This document shows positions 37,042 to 50,757 of a stretch of 64,000 nucleotides of DNA, piece after piece. The stretch comes from Octopus vulgaris (taxonomy: Eukaryota), in contig OX597823.1 in assembly GCA_951406725.2 (NCBI GenBank), positions 25,110,001-25,174,000 on the forward strand. The letters run 5' to 3'. Positions within the stretch are counted from its first letter, which is position 1. Every line of letters starts with the position of its first letter. Position numbers and translations under genes: made by a program. The notes under the pieces are model-generated. The model was not told where the DNA came from, searched no databases, and worked only from the letters and a program-made list of their open reading frames with translations.

Positions 37042-38514
37042 CTTGAGAGAATCAAATGATAAAATAATAATAATAACATCAGTTTCTAAGCTTATTTACA
37101 ATTTTTTCTAGAAATAAATTCAATAATCAATTTTTAAGTATGGTGATACATAGAAATCTTATGAAATTTCTAAATAAGATAATTAAAGAGGTACAAGTGG
37201 AGTACTCTTATTGTACAATTTAACTTCTCCACCTACAACCTAGTCATATATTGTATGTTGATATATTTTTGCCCATACATTGTGTATATACTTATTTCAA
37301 ATTTTGGCACAAAGCCAGCAATTTTGGGGGAGTGGGTAAGTCAATTACATCGACCCCAGTGCTCAACTGGTGCTTATTTTATCAATCCCAAATGTATGAA
37401 AGACAAAGTCAACTATAGTATAATTTGAACTCAACAAAAGCAGACGAAATGCTGATAAGCATTTTGCCCAGTATGCTAACAACTCTGCCAGCTTTCCACC
37501 TTACATTGTGTATATATTAAAATTATAGTGATTACATTGTCATCACTGGAATATTACTGTTATTTGCTTTTGCAGCAAGTAATTGAAAGGCAAGCAAAAT
37601 TTTAAGTATGGAAACTAAACATGAATAACAGTTACAAATAAAACACATTGTACTTGAATTATGCCAATTTTCATTCAAGAAATTATTCACCAATTGTGTA
37701 CTTCATTTCCTGAGAAATACAAAGTGTTCTGTTTATCACTTAAACATTATGGGGGCAATGTGTGACATAATCAGTAGAGTTTTATGATTTTTACTTATGT
37801 TCCTTTGCTGAGTGCCTGCAAAAGTCACCAATAAAGCAAGTACCAATCAAGTACTAAGGTCGATCTAATCAACTACATCCTCCCTCAAAATTTGCCTGTG
37901 ACTTGTGCTCATATTACATATAAATTTTAGAAGCAACATCTAGAAATCTCTAGTATGAAAGTGATACTAGATAACATTGCCAGTTCACTTAGCAGGCATA
38001 GAGGTGCTGGCTGTCATGCCTCTCCAAGATGCATAGGTGATGAAATTATTCTTCATAAATTCATTTCATGTCTGAATATCACTGATATGTAGCAGTGTAT
38101 GTCAGATGGCTGTTACTTGATGTAAAAACTAACCAACCACATTTGTTTAGTAAAGGGAACAGACAGTAGTTTTTCTCCGTCTGGTGGGTCTGAGATAAGT
38201 TGTTGTACAATGGGCACATTCAAAAGATTATCTTTCTGACTATGCCCTCATACACTTCGCTTGAAGCAGAAGATAAGGATGAAGAACGAGGTTCTGTCCT
38301 GAGTAAATTTCATGAAAAGTGAATGCAAGTCATGAAAAAAACAGTATTTGAATTTTGTCTGGAGTATGTATCAGTATAGGGCAAGTGCCCAGAGATGGCA
38401 TTCAGAGTTTTGTGGTACCTGAACATGTTTGTAATCCTGGTGTATTTTCTTATGGTGCCCCTTTAACAAAAAAAAAGCCCAATTACTATTGTCATTATTA
38501 TTATTATCTTTAAA

Positions 38515-38945
38515 ACAGTGAGCTGGCAGAATTGTTAGCATGTTAGACAAAATGTTTACTATTTCTTCCAACTCTTTACATTCTGAATTCAAATTCTGCT
38601 GAGAGTAAACGTTGCCTTTTATCATTTCTGGAGTGATAAAACAAGTACTAGTTGAGTACTGGGGTCAATGTAATCAACCCCCTCTTGCCTGAAACTGCTA
38701 TTAATATTATTAGTAGTAGTAGTAAGGCAGCAAGCTGGTAGAATTGGTAGCATACCAGGCAAAATGCTTAGTGGGTGTTTTGTCTGTCTTTACATTCTGA
38801 GTTCAATGTCTGCTGTGGCTAACTTTGCCTTTCACTATTTTGGGATCAATAAAATAAGTACTAGTTGATTACTGGGATCAATGCAATTCCTTTACCTCCT
38901 CCCCCAAAATTACTGGCTTTGTGCTACAATTTGAAACTATTATTA
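38515..38945 (+). mobile_element. Two tandem tRNA-derived SINE copies
   Basis: gagctggcagaattgttagca...aaatgcttag...ttctgagttcaa...actggggtcaat...; same family at 37300-37500 (-), 41528-42005, 52010-52240 (-) and 52500-52720. Confidence 0.75.
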
Positions 38946-38954
38946 TTATTGTGA

Positions 38955-40886
38955 GGCACGCAGTGACCAACAACAGAATGAGGTTAGCATGGTCAGTTAC
39001 TTGCAGCTGGCTTTTATTCACTTGAGATTGTGTCAACTGTTTGAATCTACACAACAGAGTACACCTTTTGGACACATGAACGTGGTTGTCTTTGGTGATT
39101 TGTTTCAATTATCACCTGTTAAAGAAAAAGTGGTGTCTAAAAGAATCAGTTGCCATGATGCCCAAAGAGCATGCTTAGGCATTAGCAGCCACTACTTGTT
39201 GAGATTCTTTGATTATGATGAGTTGACAGTTAACATGTATCAGAAAGGCAATACGAAAAATTACGTTAACATGCTCAGCTGAATCAGATTGGGTTTACTG
39301 CTTGACTCTGACATCCAAATTCTTAATGAGCATAGAATTGAATCCAACGGCAAAGCTGCTCTCAAACAGGTTGCTTACAAAATGTGTGAGCTGACTCAGA
39401 CAACTGATTTGAGTATCATTTGCATTATACCTATGAACGACTCGGTAACAGCATTTAGCAACCTTATGCTTGTTAAATTTGGCATTAGTGCTGTCGAGAT
39501 TGCTGCCATTGATTCCAGCATGTGGCAAACCAAAGGTCAAAAAAAGAAAACTAAAAGTAAGAAGTTGACCACCCAGGCAAAAAAAAAAAAAAAAGTGTGA
39601 TACTGCTGGCCTTGAAACTGTCCTTAAAGTTGGTATTAATGCTTGAGTAATGCTTAAGCACAACATGGATGCAGACAGTGGTTTGTGCAATGGTGAGATG
39701 GGAACTGTCAAGACTCAACTACGAATTTGGAAAGATTACTTCCATTGACGTTCTCTTTGATAGTTTAAACAAAGTCTTTTTCCATCAAAACTATCAAAGC
39801 CAATTACGAATTGTCACCTGGTGTGTTCATCACTAGAGATCAATTTCCCTTGTGTATTGCATATGCAATTTCTATCCACAAATCACAGGGAATAAGTGTC
39901 AATAGTGTCATTGTTGATTTGGGGACCGGCGTTTTCTCCGACAGTATGGCTTATGTGGCCTTGTTCAGAGCTCGCAAACTGTGCAATGTTCACTTGATTG
40001 ATCTTGATCCATCGAGTTTGATCATGTGTGATTCCAGTGCTTGGAAAGAATATAACTATTTGAGAGAGTGTATTAATGTGGAACCACTTCCATTGTGTAA
40101 CGTGAGGCTTAAAATTATCAAACAAGCTAAAAAGGCAACTAAGGAGAGTAAAGTTGCCATAAATATGGATAGTGAAATCATCAACTTGCTGAAATTGAAA
40201 AAGGCTAGATTTGACAATACAGTTGCAAAGCCGTACAACGAGAGGAACACTTGTTTTGTGAACAGTATGATACAGGTTATCTGCCAGCTACCTTTGTAGG
40301 CCAAATATATGCAGTCCAGTAATGATATTGTCATTCATGAAATTCACAATATTACATCTTCATCTGGAACTAATTGGTAGCCAACTTGAGAAATATTATT
40401 GGCAGCAGGTTTAACAATGGTACTTAGCAGTGTGCGCATGATTTTTGGAAGCACATTTATTATTCACTGCCTGAAAATGTCAAACAAACATTCATGTTTG
40501 AGGAGAATACCTTGCTCAGGTGCACTAGAAAATACGAGGCCAATTGCCCCAAATTACACAATAACAAGTGTGATTGCGTATTGACCAATGGGTGTGGCAC
40601 TTCCATGAATACGGCCAACCTCAAGTCTGATCTGAAGTTGCATCCTATTAGTGGTTGGTGACAGTTTAAAAGCTTGCTCAAAAATGAGGCTTCAATTATC
40701 AAGAGGTGCAGTCTGTGTGGCATTGACACCGAGCACACTGGTATAGTGAGCCGTGTGTTCCCAAACACTATGTATTACCTGGTTGTTTATTTGAACAGAT
40801 TCAAATATATAGACAATCAGATGGTCAGGATTAATTCAGAGTTGATGAATTATTCTGTTGACAATAGGGATAACCTTTATGTTTGA
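38955..40886 (+). pseudogene. Decayed PIF1-family (Helitron/Helentron-like) helicase fused to a USP (peptidase C19) domain
   Basis: SMVS...IHLRL...PFGHMNVVVFGDLFQLSPV; ELTVNMYQ; TAGLETVLKVGINA*VMLKHNMD...GLCNGEMGTV; RDQFPLCIAYAISIHKSQGIS...AYVALFRAR; then in the same ORF NERNTCFVNSMIQVICQLP, and later QCAHDF and LVVYLNRF; contains stops and frameshifts. Confidence 0.85.
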
Positions 40887-40889
40887 CTC

Positions 40890-41500
40890 ATAGCCGCCAC
40901 ATCTTAGTGATTTCAATTCTCAGGTTTCCATATTTATCAACATTTTTCTCTTTCTTTCATGGTGATATGTTGATCTCCAGGCACTGCCATGTCAATTATT
41001 AGGCACTCTTGTTTGTCCCTCCTAAAGGTTACTATATCTAGCCTTTGGTGCTCTAACACCCTGTATCTGGAAATCAAAATCCCAGAGGATTTTTGCCTTC
41101 CCCTTTTCCATACTTATGGCATAATAGCCAGTTGAGGTTTTGGGCTACCTTGTCATGTCTAGACTTGTACTCTTTCTGTGCAAGACTTTCACGAGCACTA
41201 ACAATGTGTGTCACGCTTTCGACACTCTGCCGACACATTCTGTTAAGGTCTGTTGCACTTGTGTGATATATATTCTTTTTCATGGAGCTGGTATTCAATG
41301 CCTGGCCCTGGGCAGCAATGATTAGGCTTTCAGTATTCTTTTTTAGGTTACCCTTGTTGAGCTACCTCCATGATGCTTCCTAGTCTTTTAATTTGTTGGT
41401 TTCACGGTGGAACTGACCATGTAATTCCATATGGAGTAGGATTTCTTCTCTCTCATTGGCTGTTCTTGATCGAAATTCATGAGCACTCTCAAGTTCATTT
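40890..41500 (-). mobile_element. R4/Dong-type (RLE endonuclease) non-LTR retrotransposon fragment
   Basis: RMCRQSVESVTHIVSA...LAQKEYKSRHDKVAQNL (decayed CCHC knuckle plus RHD motif), followed by LWDF..I and PDIV/IIDMAVP-like motifs. Confidence 0.8.
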
Positions 41501-42059
41501 TTGTTTATTGTGGTGGTGATGGGTGATGGTGAGCTGACAAAGCTGTTAACATATCAGACAAAATGTTTAGTGGTATTTTGTTCATCTTTATATCCTAAGC
41601 TCAAATTCTGCCATGGTTGATTTTGCCTTTCATCCTTTCAGGGTCAATAAAATAAGCATCAGTCATGTACTGGGGGTTGATGTAATTGAGTATTCCTCTC
41701 CCAAAATTTCAGACCTTGTGTCTATAATAGAAAGGATTATTATAATGGTGACTATGTAGAGCACTGGAAAAAAGGCCATGCAGTATTTCTTCTGGCCCTT
41801 TATGTTCTGAGTTCAAATCCTGCTGAGGTCAACTTTGCTTTTCATTCCTCCAAAGTCAGTAAAATAATGTACTAGTTGAGATTGGGACTGATTTAATCAA
41901 CCCCTTCCCCACGAATTTCTGGCCTTGTGCTTATATTCAAAACAAGAGTGGTAGATAAAATACTTTGTAGCATTTAATTTTAGCTCTTTAAGTTTTGAGT
42001 TCAAACAAGGAAGTTAAGAGGATCTCCAAAAATTGGGTGTTAATTATTTTGGAAGATAT

Positions 42060-42720
42060 TCAATACCCAAGTACCAATCTCAAAATCTTAGCTGTTTCCA
42101 GCGGAGCTGTTTTATGAGCCTGCTCCCATGTCAATTCCGTTTTTCTGACATATTTCTCATACTTGGTTGTTAGCACTCTGAGTGCCCCTACAACTGCTGG
42201 GATAACAGACACTCTCCTCTTGGCCCACATTCTTGCAATTTCGTCTTTTAGTTGTCTGTACTTTTCCATCTTTTCTAGTTCTTTGTCACTTATGCATGCA
42301 TCCCTAGGTATTGTAATATCTATAGTCTTGGTTTCCTTTTTTTTTTATCTTCCATAACAATGCCTGGTCTCTAAGCATTGATTAGGGAGTCACATTGGAT
42401 TGTAAAATCCCACAGTATCTTATATTTATTGTGCTCGATGACTCCTGGTTCATGTTTGTACCATTTCTGTGCTTTGTTCAGGCAAAACTTTTCACATAGC
42501 CTCCAGTGGATGAACTTAGCCACATTATAATGCCTCCTTTTGTAGTGCTTTTGGGCCAGCTTGCTACACTCACTCACTTTTGCTGCCACACATGCTACAA
42601 AGGGGCAATTCACTGTTCTTATCTATTTAGAACTTGGTGTAATTAGTTCTCAGAGTTTGTTCTTGGGTGCTGCATACCAATGCCTCAGTGCATCCTTTCA
42701 GATCACTTTTTCTTAGTCAT
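42060..42720 (-). mobile_element. Second R4/Dong-type RLE retrotransposon C-terminal fragment
   Basis: CSKLAQKHYKRRHYNVAKFIHWRLC...ILWDFTIQCD...EKMEKYRQLKDEIARMW...VIPAVVGAL...ILRLVLGY*. Confidence 0.85.
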
Positions 42721-42730
42721 CACCAATAAT

Positions 42731-42756
42731 TGCTGCTGCTGCTGCTGCTGCTGCTG

Positions 42757-42812
<56 letters not shown>

Positions 42813-42848
42813 ACTACTACTGCTGCTGCTACGACAACAACAACAACA
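42731..42848. repeat. Compound (CTG)n/(CTA)n/(CAA)n microsatellite
   Basis: Directly visible trinucleotide runs. Confidence 0.95.
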
Positions 42849-43839
42849 GATAGACATAGATGTTAAGAGATGAGATGATATTTGGATTGTCCAGTTCAGA
42901 AATAATGTGTAATATAACATACTTTGCATATATTTAGTCATTTGATTTAGAACTACCATTTCAACTGCTCGTGCTCTTTTACCATTATTAGTATTATAAA
43001 TATTAAAGGGTTAAATTCTAGAACATACACTCCACTATGTGAATCAACATATTTGACACCATTCGTGTAATGAATACTTTCTAGAATTGTGTATCTTGTC
43101 AAAGATTTCACTCTTTAGCATCCATAATACAAATGGTGTTACATATGTTTTACATATACAGTAGCTTAGTTGTACCTTGTCCAAAGTTTAATCTTTTAGC
43201 ATTCATAAGACAGACAGCTATTGCTGAAACAACAGATTTTTTATAAAAGCTGTCCCAGCAGTAACCATTGTTTCTTATTGACTATAGTGTATCTAGGAGA
43301 TTTTTACGATAGTACAGAATGCTCTAGTAGAGATTTGGTTGTTATTTTTAGCAATTGTGAAAGTTCACTTGTACTGATAACTCTGACAGCATTAGATATA
43401 TTGATGTATAGCTATTGCAGTTTGATGATCAGCAATATGGAAATTCATGTAATTAGAGATGAGGAACTTGTGACAATAACCATAAACAGCTCTCATTCCT
43501 TGGCACTGAATACTGTTTTAAACTTCCCCCTGGTACATACATATGCTATACACAGATATATTGAAATATTCAGGTAAATTAAGACAATCTCTCTTGCATC
43601 CTTTGTGACGTTTAATGTTTATAACTTTAGACATGCAGTTTTCTCATAAAGTACAGTTATGAATATTAAAGGGTTTAACTTTAGATGCACAATTGTAGAT
43701 AGTTAGTTTTACTTTTATTTATAAAGTATTAAATGAACAAATACCCTCTTTTAAAATATTTAAAGAAGAAAAAAGATTAACTAAAATAAAAGTAAAAAGA
43801 TTTTTGAAGGACAAAATTGATAAATGAAATCCAATTTAC

Positions 43840-49619: not shown

Positions 49620-50757
49620 TATGAGGGAGAGTCAAAAATTATAAATTATACACACTCTTGTTTTTTCAATGTATTTATACAAATGCAGGGGATAAACAAG
49701 TATATCATTTTTCTATATAGTCTCCTACCTTTCCAATGCATTTGGTCCAGTGGTCCACAAGCTTGCATATTCCCTCCAAGAAGGTTTTCAGTTGATCATG
49801 CAACCATTTATGCACCACTTCCTATGTGAACATCATCCATAGGAAATCGACAACCAAGTAAACCATCTTTGAGTGGTCCAAAAGATATGATAGTTAGAAG
49901 GGGCAAAATCTGGGCTGTAGGCAGGGTGTTCCAGCACCTCAAAACCCAGTTCATTAATGGTTTCAACAGTTTGGGTGACCATGTGTGGGCATGCATTGTA
50001 ATGAAACAACAAAACTTTCTTTGACAATAGGCTTTGGCATTTGGTGCAAATTGCTGGCTTCAGTTTGTTGGCCAGGAAGGCACTATATCTTGCACTGTTG
50101 ATCATAAACCCCTTTTCCAGGTAGTCTTCCAGTATAGGCCCTTTTGAGTCCCCAAAAGAGTTAGTCTCAACTTTCCCATGGAAAACTGAGTCTTGAATTT
50201 CTTCATTGCTGACGAGCCAGGATGTTTCAACTCCATACTCTGTCTTTTAGATTCTGCATCATAATGATGGACCCATGCTTCATTTGTGGCTAAAAATTCC
50301 TCATTGTTGTAGCAATCAAGTAAACATTTGCAGACCTCAAGACATTTGCACTTGTGCTCTACAGTAAGCTCTCTTGGCACCCATCTTGCACAGACTTTAC
50401 GGAATCTGAGCTCATTGTGGATGATTTGATTGGCAGAACCATGACTAATCTGCAGAGAATGAGCTACCTCATCATATGATAACTTGCTGGTTCACCATTA
50501 CCATCTCTAAAGCTTGCAGAATCTTCTCATCAATGGTGGAGGCTGACAGGCATACCCATATTGTGGTAAAAGCCTCTTATGAATTCCAGCACCTGACAGA
50601 CCTTCCAACCATAGAAATTGGAACATGATTAGGCTCAAACTTCAATCATGTGGCCACAATAGTACCAACTATAAGCACACATGCACAGAAGGCAGAGTGA
50701 CAATAATAAAGATATGTTATGGTGAAAGTGTGGATAATTTTTTTACTTCCCTTCGTG
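49620..50757 (-). mobile_element. Tc1/mariner DNA transposon, near full length, inactivated
   Basis: WVPRELT...NEAWVHHYDAESKRQSME.KHPGS...KKFKTQ; INSARYS...KLKPAI...HYNACPH...LGFEVLEHPAYSPDFAPSNYH; imperfect TIRs TA-tgagggagagtcaaaaattat / ataatttttttacttcccttcg. Confidence 0.9.

Follow-up and report, generated by a model that had tools for sequence, protein, structure and literature searches.

Results

A decayed Helitron copy lies antisense within Rab23

The window analysed here is a 64,000-nt stretch of the Octopus vulgaris genome (GenBank assembly GCA_951406725.2, contig OX597823.1, forward-strand positions 25,110,001 to 25,174,000), and window coordinates are used throughout. Coding exons of Rab23 were found on the minus strand near 53.4, 51.3, 47.7, 43.9, 37.0 and 35.2 kb, and exon 1 had its best match to Rab23 (E 5e-22, versus 1e-9 for other Rabs). 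Because the minus-strand exons near 43.9 and 37.0 kb flank the element described below, it lies antisense within coding intron 4, as an initial annotation made from the sequence alone had placed it. The element, which spans nucleotides 38949-40856, is a decayed and internally deleted copy of a Helitron (Table 1).

Table 1. Features of the Helitron copy and its surroundings
Feature	Position in window	Strand	Basis or remark
Remnant of the family 5′ terminus	38949..38980	+	family reads TCTGT.. after a preceding A; the C is lost in the window copy
PIF1 helicase portion between the end of Walker B and the A-run, including GDLFQL	38978..39595	+	Pfam PIF1, E 3e-5
Pif1 2B subdomain (TAGL..VMLKHN..GLCNG)	39596..39768	+	Pfam Pif1_2B, E 2e-7, above cut-off
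PIF1 C-terminal motifs QFP, HKSQG and AYVAL.R	39769..40070	+	matches to UvrD_C_2 (E 3e-5) and Herpes_Helicase
Lys-rich linker, ~55 aa, in frame with both neighbours	40071..40234	+	open frame
USP (C19/UCH) domain, 3′-truncated, His box absent	40235..40856	+	family profile versus intact HLE2 USPs
C-terminal fragment of a restriction-like-endonuclease LINE (RHDKVA, ILWDF, RLDIV, IIDMAVP, KVIPIV)	40857..41361	-	translation
Rab23 coding intron 4, which harbours the element	37046..43839 (37046 border approximate)	-	exon motifs and splice borders

The copy retains 31 nt of its 5′ end, two thirds of the helicase, and a ubiquitin-specific protease (USP) domain until just ahead of the His box. The 5′ terminus had been missed in the initial annotation. 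Alignment with 25 termini showed that it comprises the left hairpin arm and the greater part of the inverted repeat of the 5′ end, and it matched the 5′ end of a sibling copy (L021) at 94% over 31 nt. The remnant passes into mid-helicase DNA across a 3-nt microhomology, ATG (38978-38980), and this junction was spanned by none of the four matches examined.

The remaining PIF1 part was 84-85% identical at the DNA level to two other copies (L022 and L024), and it contains a stop codon at 39280-39282 and a frame break in the A-run at ~39590. The 2B subdomain carries a stop codon (39644-39646) and a 2-nt deletion near 39710, and a 1-nt insertion lies near 39777. Downstream, a stop-to-stop frame of 176 aa (39769-40299, with the stop at 40297-40299) runs from the PIF1 C-terminal motifs through the Lys-rich linker to NERNTCFVNSMIQ with no stop within, which bears out the initial claim of an unbroken frame from the PIF1 C terminus into the USP Cys box. 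The motifs on which that claim was based were found at GDLFQL 39094, QFP 39841, HKSQG 39877 and AYVAL 39949 in the helicase and at NERNTC 40237, CAHDF 40431, RCSLC 40704 and LNRFK 40791 in the USP. The USP piece has its Asn codon at 40237 and its Cys codon at 40252, with a 12-nt deletion immediately ahead of the Cys box; it retains a QQCAHDF-type motif, the finger CxxC and LNRFK, and is interrupted by stops at 40297, 40425 and 40659 and a 1-nt deletion near 40371.

On its 3′ side the Helitron meets a LINE fragment that we take to be of the R4/Dong type. This fragment was very high-copy in read contigs, and a Pfam search with it gave no relevant match. The initial annotation had the LINE interrupting the USP at ~40890; a LINE is indeed present there, but Helitron DNA ends at 40856, and the last residues assigned to the USP (VDNRDNLYV) are LINE sequence from the other strand. 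Since the 3′ end of the LINE is itself missing and the window has no further Helitron DNA beyond 40856, the border is a deletion junction rather than a clean insertion. Very high-copy short repeats occur just upstream of the element (38510-38930), and elsewhere in the window there are minus-strand fragments of what we presume to be another LINE C terminus (42060-42344) and a mariner-like transposase (49833-50246).

The helicase-USP junction is shared by other copies of the family

The window ORF gave 56 matches in the genome, and nine of these loci were fetched. Six of the nine (L021-L026) had the same helicase-linker-USP junction, at 73-89% DNA identity; among the other three, one contained PIF1 only and two were distant helicases. 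The Lys-rich linker was present in all six copies and in a protein of Octopus bimaculoides (XP_052827946) that is 81% identical and likewise continues from PIF1 into the USP. The RefSeq gene model of the latter does not include the catalytic Cys and terminates prematurely. Tandem units of ~180 nt form a long array adjoining one of the copies (L026:4700-8900).

The His box that is missing from the window was covered by six copies, which read ..ADSGHYTS..KWDIIDD..YLLFLEK followed by a stop codon. Across copies the catalytic codons were largely intact (Cys in 6/7, the upstream Asn in 7/7, His in 6/6 and the Asp of W..ID in 5/6), and GHY of the His box was intact in only 2/6. Once an alignment ambiguity at 40394 had been resolved, every frame break between QFP and the USP stop codon proved private to one copy. 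We therefore conclude that the template had a continuous PIF1-USP frame. The family ORF ends after the USP and lacks the C-terminal AP endonuclease of Helentrons in the strict sense.

Longer copies supplied the parts that are deleted from the window copy. One of them (L052) contains, in order, the 5′ end, an OTU domain (Pfam E 1e-3), a Lys-rich stretch, a CxxC..CC Zn-finger, an HUH Rep (Helitron_like_N, E 1e-10, above cut-off; HUH motif EYQMRGAPHVH), the USP and the 3′ end. The HUH Rep was found in L052, L176 and L199. These comparisons showed that the family is laid out as a 5′ end, a piece with OTU, Lys-rich stretch and Zn-finger that comes from an HLE1 Helitron, the HUH Rep, PIF1, the linker, the USP and ~1.4 kb of 3′ DNA ending in CTAG. 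We found no intact autonomous copy in this genome.

The family belongs with USP-bearing HLE2 elements

In tblastn searches the Rep and helicase of the family matched only the HLE2 query. A quick PIF1 tree with 36 rows placed the three family rows in a 15-row group (SH-aLRT 95) together with all eight known USP-bearing rows, apart from the four HLE1 rows. We classify the family as an HLE2-type Helitron on its Rep and helicase sequences. A protein of 1040 aa from the same tree group (P0003) has an HLE2-type helicase with a C-terminal OTU in the slot of the USP.

Intact relatives were found in other data sets. Two of these are unbroken single ORFs with the order DUF6570-Rep-PIF1-USP-USP (2509 aa, P0120, and 2461 aa, L193/P0143), and in two ant proteins (P0005 and P0010) PIF1 continues into the Cys box. 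DUF6570 lies upstream of Rep in P0120, P0143 and P0010; it is absent from the octopus family, and an HLE1 piece occupies its place in L052, L024 and L176.

The copies, the intact ORFs and the PIF1 tree agree with the proposal of the initial annotation that a rolling-circle transposon lineage, whose PIF1 continued in frame into a C-terminal C19/USP domain, left its relic at this locus. That annotation had also suggested looking for the fusion at other loci, for an upstream HUH Rep, a USP His/Asp box and Helitron termini, and for the grouping of the helicase in a phylogeny; each was found, the Rep, the His/Asp box and the termini at family level. We consider it likely that the window contains a dead, internally deleted copy of an HLE2-type Helitron whose transposase ended in an in-frame USP-like domain, and that in the active ancestor this domain would have removed ubiquitin from the transposase or from a chromatin target.

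The family has mixed ends and many short partners

The 5′ ends were preceded by A in 25/25 cases and began with TC in 19/25. Half of the 24 aligned 3′ stretches were true termini with unrelated flanks, and the other 12 were an inverted internal copy of the same end. The 12 true termini read CTAG in nine cases and one-letter variants of it in three, and the next letter was T in all 12. A 5′ TC, a 3′ CTAG and insertion between A and T are HLE1-type letters, and HLE2-type insertion into TT with T-rich ends was not seen in the family.

The secondary structure and repeats of the ends are of the other type. The first 62 nt fold as a hairpin (z -3.3 to -5.0 in 4/5 folded), with slight covariation (2/23 pairs). 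No 3′ hairpin was predicted in either of the two sequences folded (z +1.6 and -0.6), and a decayed HLE1 control also failed this prediction, so the lack of a 3′ fold carries little weight. A 13-nt repeat at nucleotides 26-38 recurs inverted ~34 nt ahead of CTAG, and a second block of 6 nt is repeated in the same register. The 13-nt repeat was found within two mismatches in 24/25 5′ ends and within three in 24/24 3′ stretches, and its inverted 3′ copy lay 33-35 nt from CTAG in 17/18. The family ends are thus mixed, combining TC, CTAG and the A-T target of HLE1 with the hairpin and asymmetric inverted repeats of HLE2.

At least 40 short non-coding elements share these ends. Genome searches gave at least 41 matches for the 5′ end, at least 40 for the 3′ region and at least 42 for the short-element interior, with sharp ends, and the interiors of 21 short or partial elements had no HLE2 coding match. 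A third subfamily with the same ends (L072, L079, L081, L084, L087 and L091) has a non-coding interior of ~0.7-1 kb that is palindromic in its TG/CA-rich arms and contains a 28-nt tandem unit. The last ~200-270 nt of the family occur twice, once inverted ~600 nt upstream with CTAG included (L086:2031-2155 versus 2485-2760), and the segment between these 3′ arms is flipped in some copies; the duplicated arms may reflect an old head-to-head insertion of the same family.

The 5′ part was derived from a co-resident HLE1 family

The OTU/Zn-finger piece shared 80-86% identity with the front part of an HLE1 family resident in the same genome (family A), which has 5′ and 3′ ends of its own. When 16 OTU-bearing loci were extended to 10 kb, 13 continued into an HLE1 RepHel beyond the Zn-finger, two showed the Zn-finger region only, and one (L176) continued into the HLE2 Rep. 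An HLE1 family with an N-terminal OTU ahead of RepHel occurs in this genome (L165, L166, L169-L171 and L178; at least 40 matches), and OTU has been reported in HLE1 in the HELIANO survey (PMC11417382).

The junctions of this graft are sharp. It begins after nucleotide ~230 of the USP family, the first ~230 nt being common to the short elements, and stops directly past the Zn-finger; 140 nt of the family A 3′ region follow and then the HLE2 Rep, with DUF6570 lost. Such an arrangement might also be explained if a non-autonomous TC...CTAG shell had acquired two Helitron fragments unrelated to each other, the HLE1 OTU/Zn-finger and the HLE2 Rep-PIF1-USP. No functional transposase would then have been encoded by the composite at any time, and its mobility would have depended on another element; the USP fusion would be genuine all the same, but the mixed ends would not have come from the HLE2 element itself. 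This explanation, which we hold to be possible and the less probable of the two, fits the sharp joints, the existence of at least 40 short elements that have the same ends and no coding DNA, and the absence of family DNA from all seven DUF6570 loci. Among the loci examined we found no copy with family ends and DUF6570 that lacked the HLE1 piece, and no graft-free coding copy; L199 is cut short upstream by another element. Against it, the ends carry HLE2-type signals (a 5′ hairpin, a bipartite inverted repeat and no 3′ hairpin), unlike those of family A; L077/L103 combines the 5′ end with post-USP DNA and a portion of the interior proper to the short elements, and has no family A piece; and no HLE1 RepHel was tied to the family ends within 1.5 kb in 50 loci. 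Because of the HLE2-type end signals and the graft-free L077/L103, we favor a graft into a native HLE2 element over capture by a shell.

The USP domain is highly divergent

Like cellular USP/UBP proteases (PF00443), which we take to be MEROPS family C19, the family domain has the Cys box, a QQD-like motif, finger cysteines, LxRF, a His box and W..DD in the same order and spacing. Unlike them it is minimal (~270 aa), is only 12-17% identical in structure alignments and has an altered QQD, the QQDAxEF motif reading QQC(A/V)HDF throughout the family. The Cys-His-Asp/Asn triad and the oxyanion Asn are kept at family level, and the window copy lacks the His and Asp.

The initial annotation had proposed a Pfam search, in which the PIF1 domains were matched. 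The Cys-box piece of the window gave a UCH match of E 3e-4 and 20.9 bits, below the curated cut-off of 23.9, and its middle USP piece gave none. A lone weak match of this kind could be due to chance, but XP_052827946 passed the cut-off with 30.6 bits, the value recorded for P0001, and P0141 exceeded it with 33.9 bits; the window pieces alone were below. A family profile compared with intact HLE2 USPs from Cys box to His box gave a probability of 99.2% (E 3e-19).

More distant comparisons returned less. A family-only profile retrieved no solved USP from PDB sequences (best USP47, E 0.38); matches to Hsc70 at E ~1e-3, above USP47, were rejected as spurious because they reflected one short chance motif. 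P0001 alone gave only weak PIF1 matches in PDB, and strong matches were obtained only when the profile also contained a more canonical USP (P0138); the cluster of P0138 includes a capping-enzyme fusion. A low-confidence fold model (pLDDT 45) had USP14 as its top match and USP entries filling the list, none at E <= 0.001. A representative search with the USP piece of L025 gave nine matches, including two unrelated repeat proteins (P0137 and P0140), and the USP region of L193 searched against longer proteins returned its own cluster alone (1/1395 candidates). As judged from these sequence comparisons, the USP of the family is very divergent.

Such divergence raises the question of whether the domain was already catalytically dead in the active ancestor, or was a non-ubiquitin module such as a ubiquitin-binding scaffold or a self-processing protease. 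The family-wide change in the QQD motif and the weak profile scores are in keeping with this, as are the pseudo-enzymes that occur in the clade, for the first USP of the sponge-like relatives P0120 and P0118 has no Cys. We nevertheless regard it as unlikely, since the Asn, Cys, His and Asp positions are kept, and the same Cys box is found in a second, 35%-identical USP lineage represented by P0141, which indicates long conservation. A USP-like domain that was catalytically competent in the ancestor remains our preferred reading.

The second USP lineage is 35-42% identical and is present in the octopus genome with ~14 matches (L054-L062, for example L056:7081-7720 on the plus strand). Its Cys box is mostly absent there, PIF1 traces lie upstream in L061, and the Cys box is intact (NRNNDCFVNS) in P0141, which derives from a sequencing-run contig. 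This lineage is probably a second USP-bearing Helitron family. In a separate case, a protein of 1527 aa from a 150-kb contig (P0147) joins a USP to the C terminus of an mRNA capping enzyme and N7-methyltransferase, and we infer that it probably comes from a large DNA virus.

The copies decayed neutrally

Family copies were 89-95% identical to the column majority, with a pairwise mean of 86% (44 pairs). This divergence is near that of a Helitron expansion at JC 0.09, which a recent study dates to ~25 million years in octopus (PMC13282606). Non-synonymous changes made up 578/818 (0.707) of the differences, compared with 0.706 ± 0.014 after reshuffling, and in the USP alone their share was 0.715 versus 0.708. 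The window copy and its siblings are under no selection, and decay has been neutral in both the helicase and the USP.

One frame break in the helicase A-run was common to four of six copies including that in the window, a fifth was broken differently, and L199 was in frame; the stop at 39644 was also present in the majority of copies. The common break and the majority stop indicate that many copies probably spread from damaged templates. A single frameshifted master as the ancestor of all copies was considered and dropped because L199 is in frame.

In two related organisms, contigs were found that extend across the 5′ flank and the junction with 3-4 differences, and a third organism gave none of this kind. 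This shared insertion, together with the RefSeq gene model of the O. bimaculoides copy, could be taken to mean that the element became a host pseudo-gene that is domesticated or expressed and plays a role at Rab23. We consider this very improbable: the window copy has five stops, four frameshifting indels in addition to the A-run break, no His box and neutral substitutions, and the RefSeq model is itself defective as described above. The stops, the frameshifts and the missing His box mean that the copy cannot make an enzyme, and as a protein it is without function.

Least probable of all is the endogenous DNA virus that the initial annotation had offered as an alternative: viruses do encode both PIF1- and USP-type domains, the element is intronless and P0147 has a USP fused to a capping enzyme, but the Helitron termini at an A-T target and the upstream HUH Rep refute such an origin, and the at least 40 short non-autonomous partners, the grouping of the helicase with HLE2 and the lack of any viral gene in any copy examined argue in the same direction.

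Discussion

Rep nicking and PIF1 unwinding drive rolling-circle transposition. In the reading that we favor, of a dead HLE2-type Helitron whose transposase ended in a USP, mobility of the ancestor would have relied on nicking of the 5′ end by Rep and unwinding by PIF1, and the USP would have been translated as the last domain of the same polypeptide. If its Cys-His-Asp triad was active, this domain presumably cleaved ubiquitin, and by analogy with the proposal made for Helitron VTDs it may have stripped the transposase, or chromatin proteins in its vicinity, of ubiquitin. The present copies would then have spread mostly as passengers from already damaged templates and decayed neutrally.

UCH in Helitron-like elements is documented by HELIANO (Li et al. 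2024, PMC11417382), as one of 20 domains that these elements stably carry. It occurs there almost exclusively in HLE2, with enrichment in subgroups c and d, whose members come chiefly from lungfish and axolotl, and it is counted as a separate ORF; Table S10 of that study includes HLE2 copies in cephalopods. Since the pairing of UCH with HLE2 is listed there, it is known rather than new, and the initial annotation overstated its novelty. An architecture already catalogued was among the grounds on which that annotation would have given up its claim, and the HELIANO entry comes up to this in spirit, albeit as a separate ORF. Like the UCH-bearing HLE2 of subgroups c and d, the octopus family has an HLE2-type Rep and PIF1 with UCH (PF00443); unlike them, as far as that description sets them apart, its USP is in frame at the RepHel C terminus. 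Our literature search for UCH in Helitrons found the HELIANO paper and its preprint only, and the published papers that it covered gave no account of the octopus family and none of an in-frame C-terminal USP, mixed ends in an animal or an HLE1 graft. What this analysis adds is the USP in frame at the RepHel C terminus, the mixed ends, and the 5′ part from a co-resident HLE1 family.

The mixture of ends is closest to that of the Phytophthora infestans proto-Helentron (Thomas et al. 2014, PMC4067079), which inserts between A and T and ends in a 3′ CTAG; its RepHel is HLE2-type and lacks AP endonuclease, and it has a 5′ stem-loop and inverted repeats of ~12 nt that differ at a single position. 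The octopus family differs in its 5′ TC rather than TT, its animal host, its C-terminal USP in place of separate SET/TIR ORFs, and the position of the 5′ inverted repeat, which lies inside the terminal hairpin instead of 3.6 kb away. Proto-Helentrons have so far been reported from oomycetes only (PMC4067079, PMC11417382), and HELIANO recovered nothing like them from 404 genomes (PMC11417382).

Resemblance to the Fusarium oxysporum Helitron2 elements (FoHeli; Chellapan et al. 2016, PMC5148889) extends to an asymmetric inverted repeat, whose 3′ copy lies 30-40 nt from the end in FoHeli and 34 nt in octopus, a 5′ hairpin, and the absence of a 3′ hairpin, as in FoHeli3-5. FoHeli end in ATTTT or CTCCTGT, whereas the octopus family ends in CTAG and carries a USP, a domain not mentioned for FoHeli in the text available. 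The same paper proposes that composite elements arise through nested insertion.

Other deubiquitinases are known from within RepHel ORFs. The Helentron-borne VTD and OTU domains (Nat Commun 2022, PMC9741609) lie inside the RepHel ORF; VTDs are active in vitro on K48 and K63 chains and were proposed to protect transposition proteins from degradation. Unlike the octopus USP, they belong to other protease classes and occur on Helentrons that bear AP endonuclease, and no Helitron USP was seen in the portion of that paper available. The literature searched likewise held no report of enzymatic activity for any Helitron USP.

The locus itself is a fossil, and its interest lies with the family. At least in this clade, the USP beside HLE2 transposases is the C-terminal domain of the transposase, and it would join OTU and VTD as a predicted deubiquitinase class built into RepHel. 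The intact natural USP domains of P0143 and P0120 make direct testing feasible. The mixed ends bear on how both Helitron clades recognize their ends and on why HLE annotation tools miss such elements.

As a tentative extension, to which we give less than even chances, the family may represent an animal lineage resembling proto-Helentrons, in which an HLE2 transposase with an active C-terminal USP is carried on TC...CTAG ends at an A-T target, and in which the N-terminal region was swapped in octopus for an HLE1 OTU/Zn-finger piece, so that two deubiquitinase classes came together from both clades. If so, the position that follows the helicase would be a site at which anti-ubiquitin domains can be exchanged, filled by USP in this family and by OTU in P0003, which would point to a general ubiquitin-based host defence against Helitron transposases.
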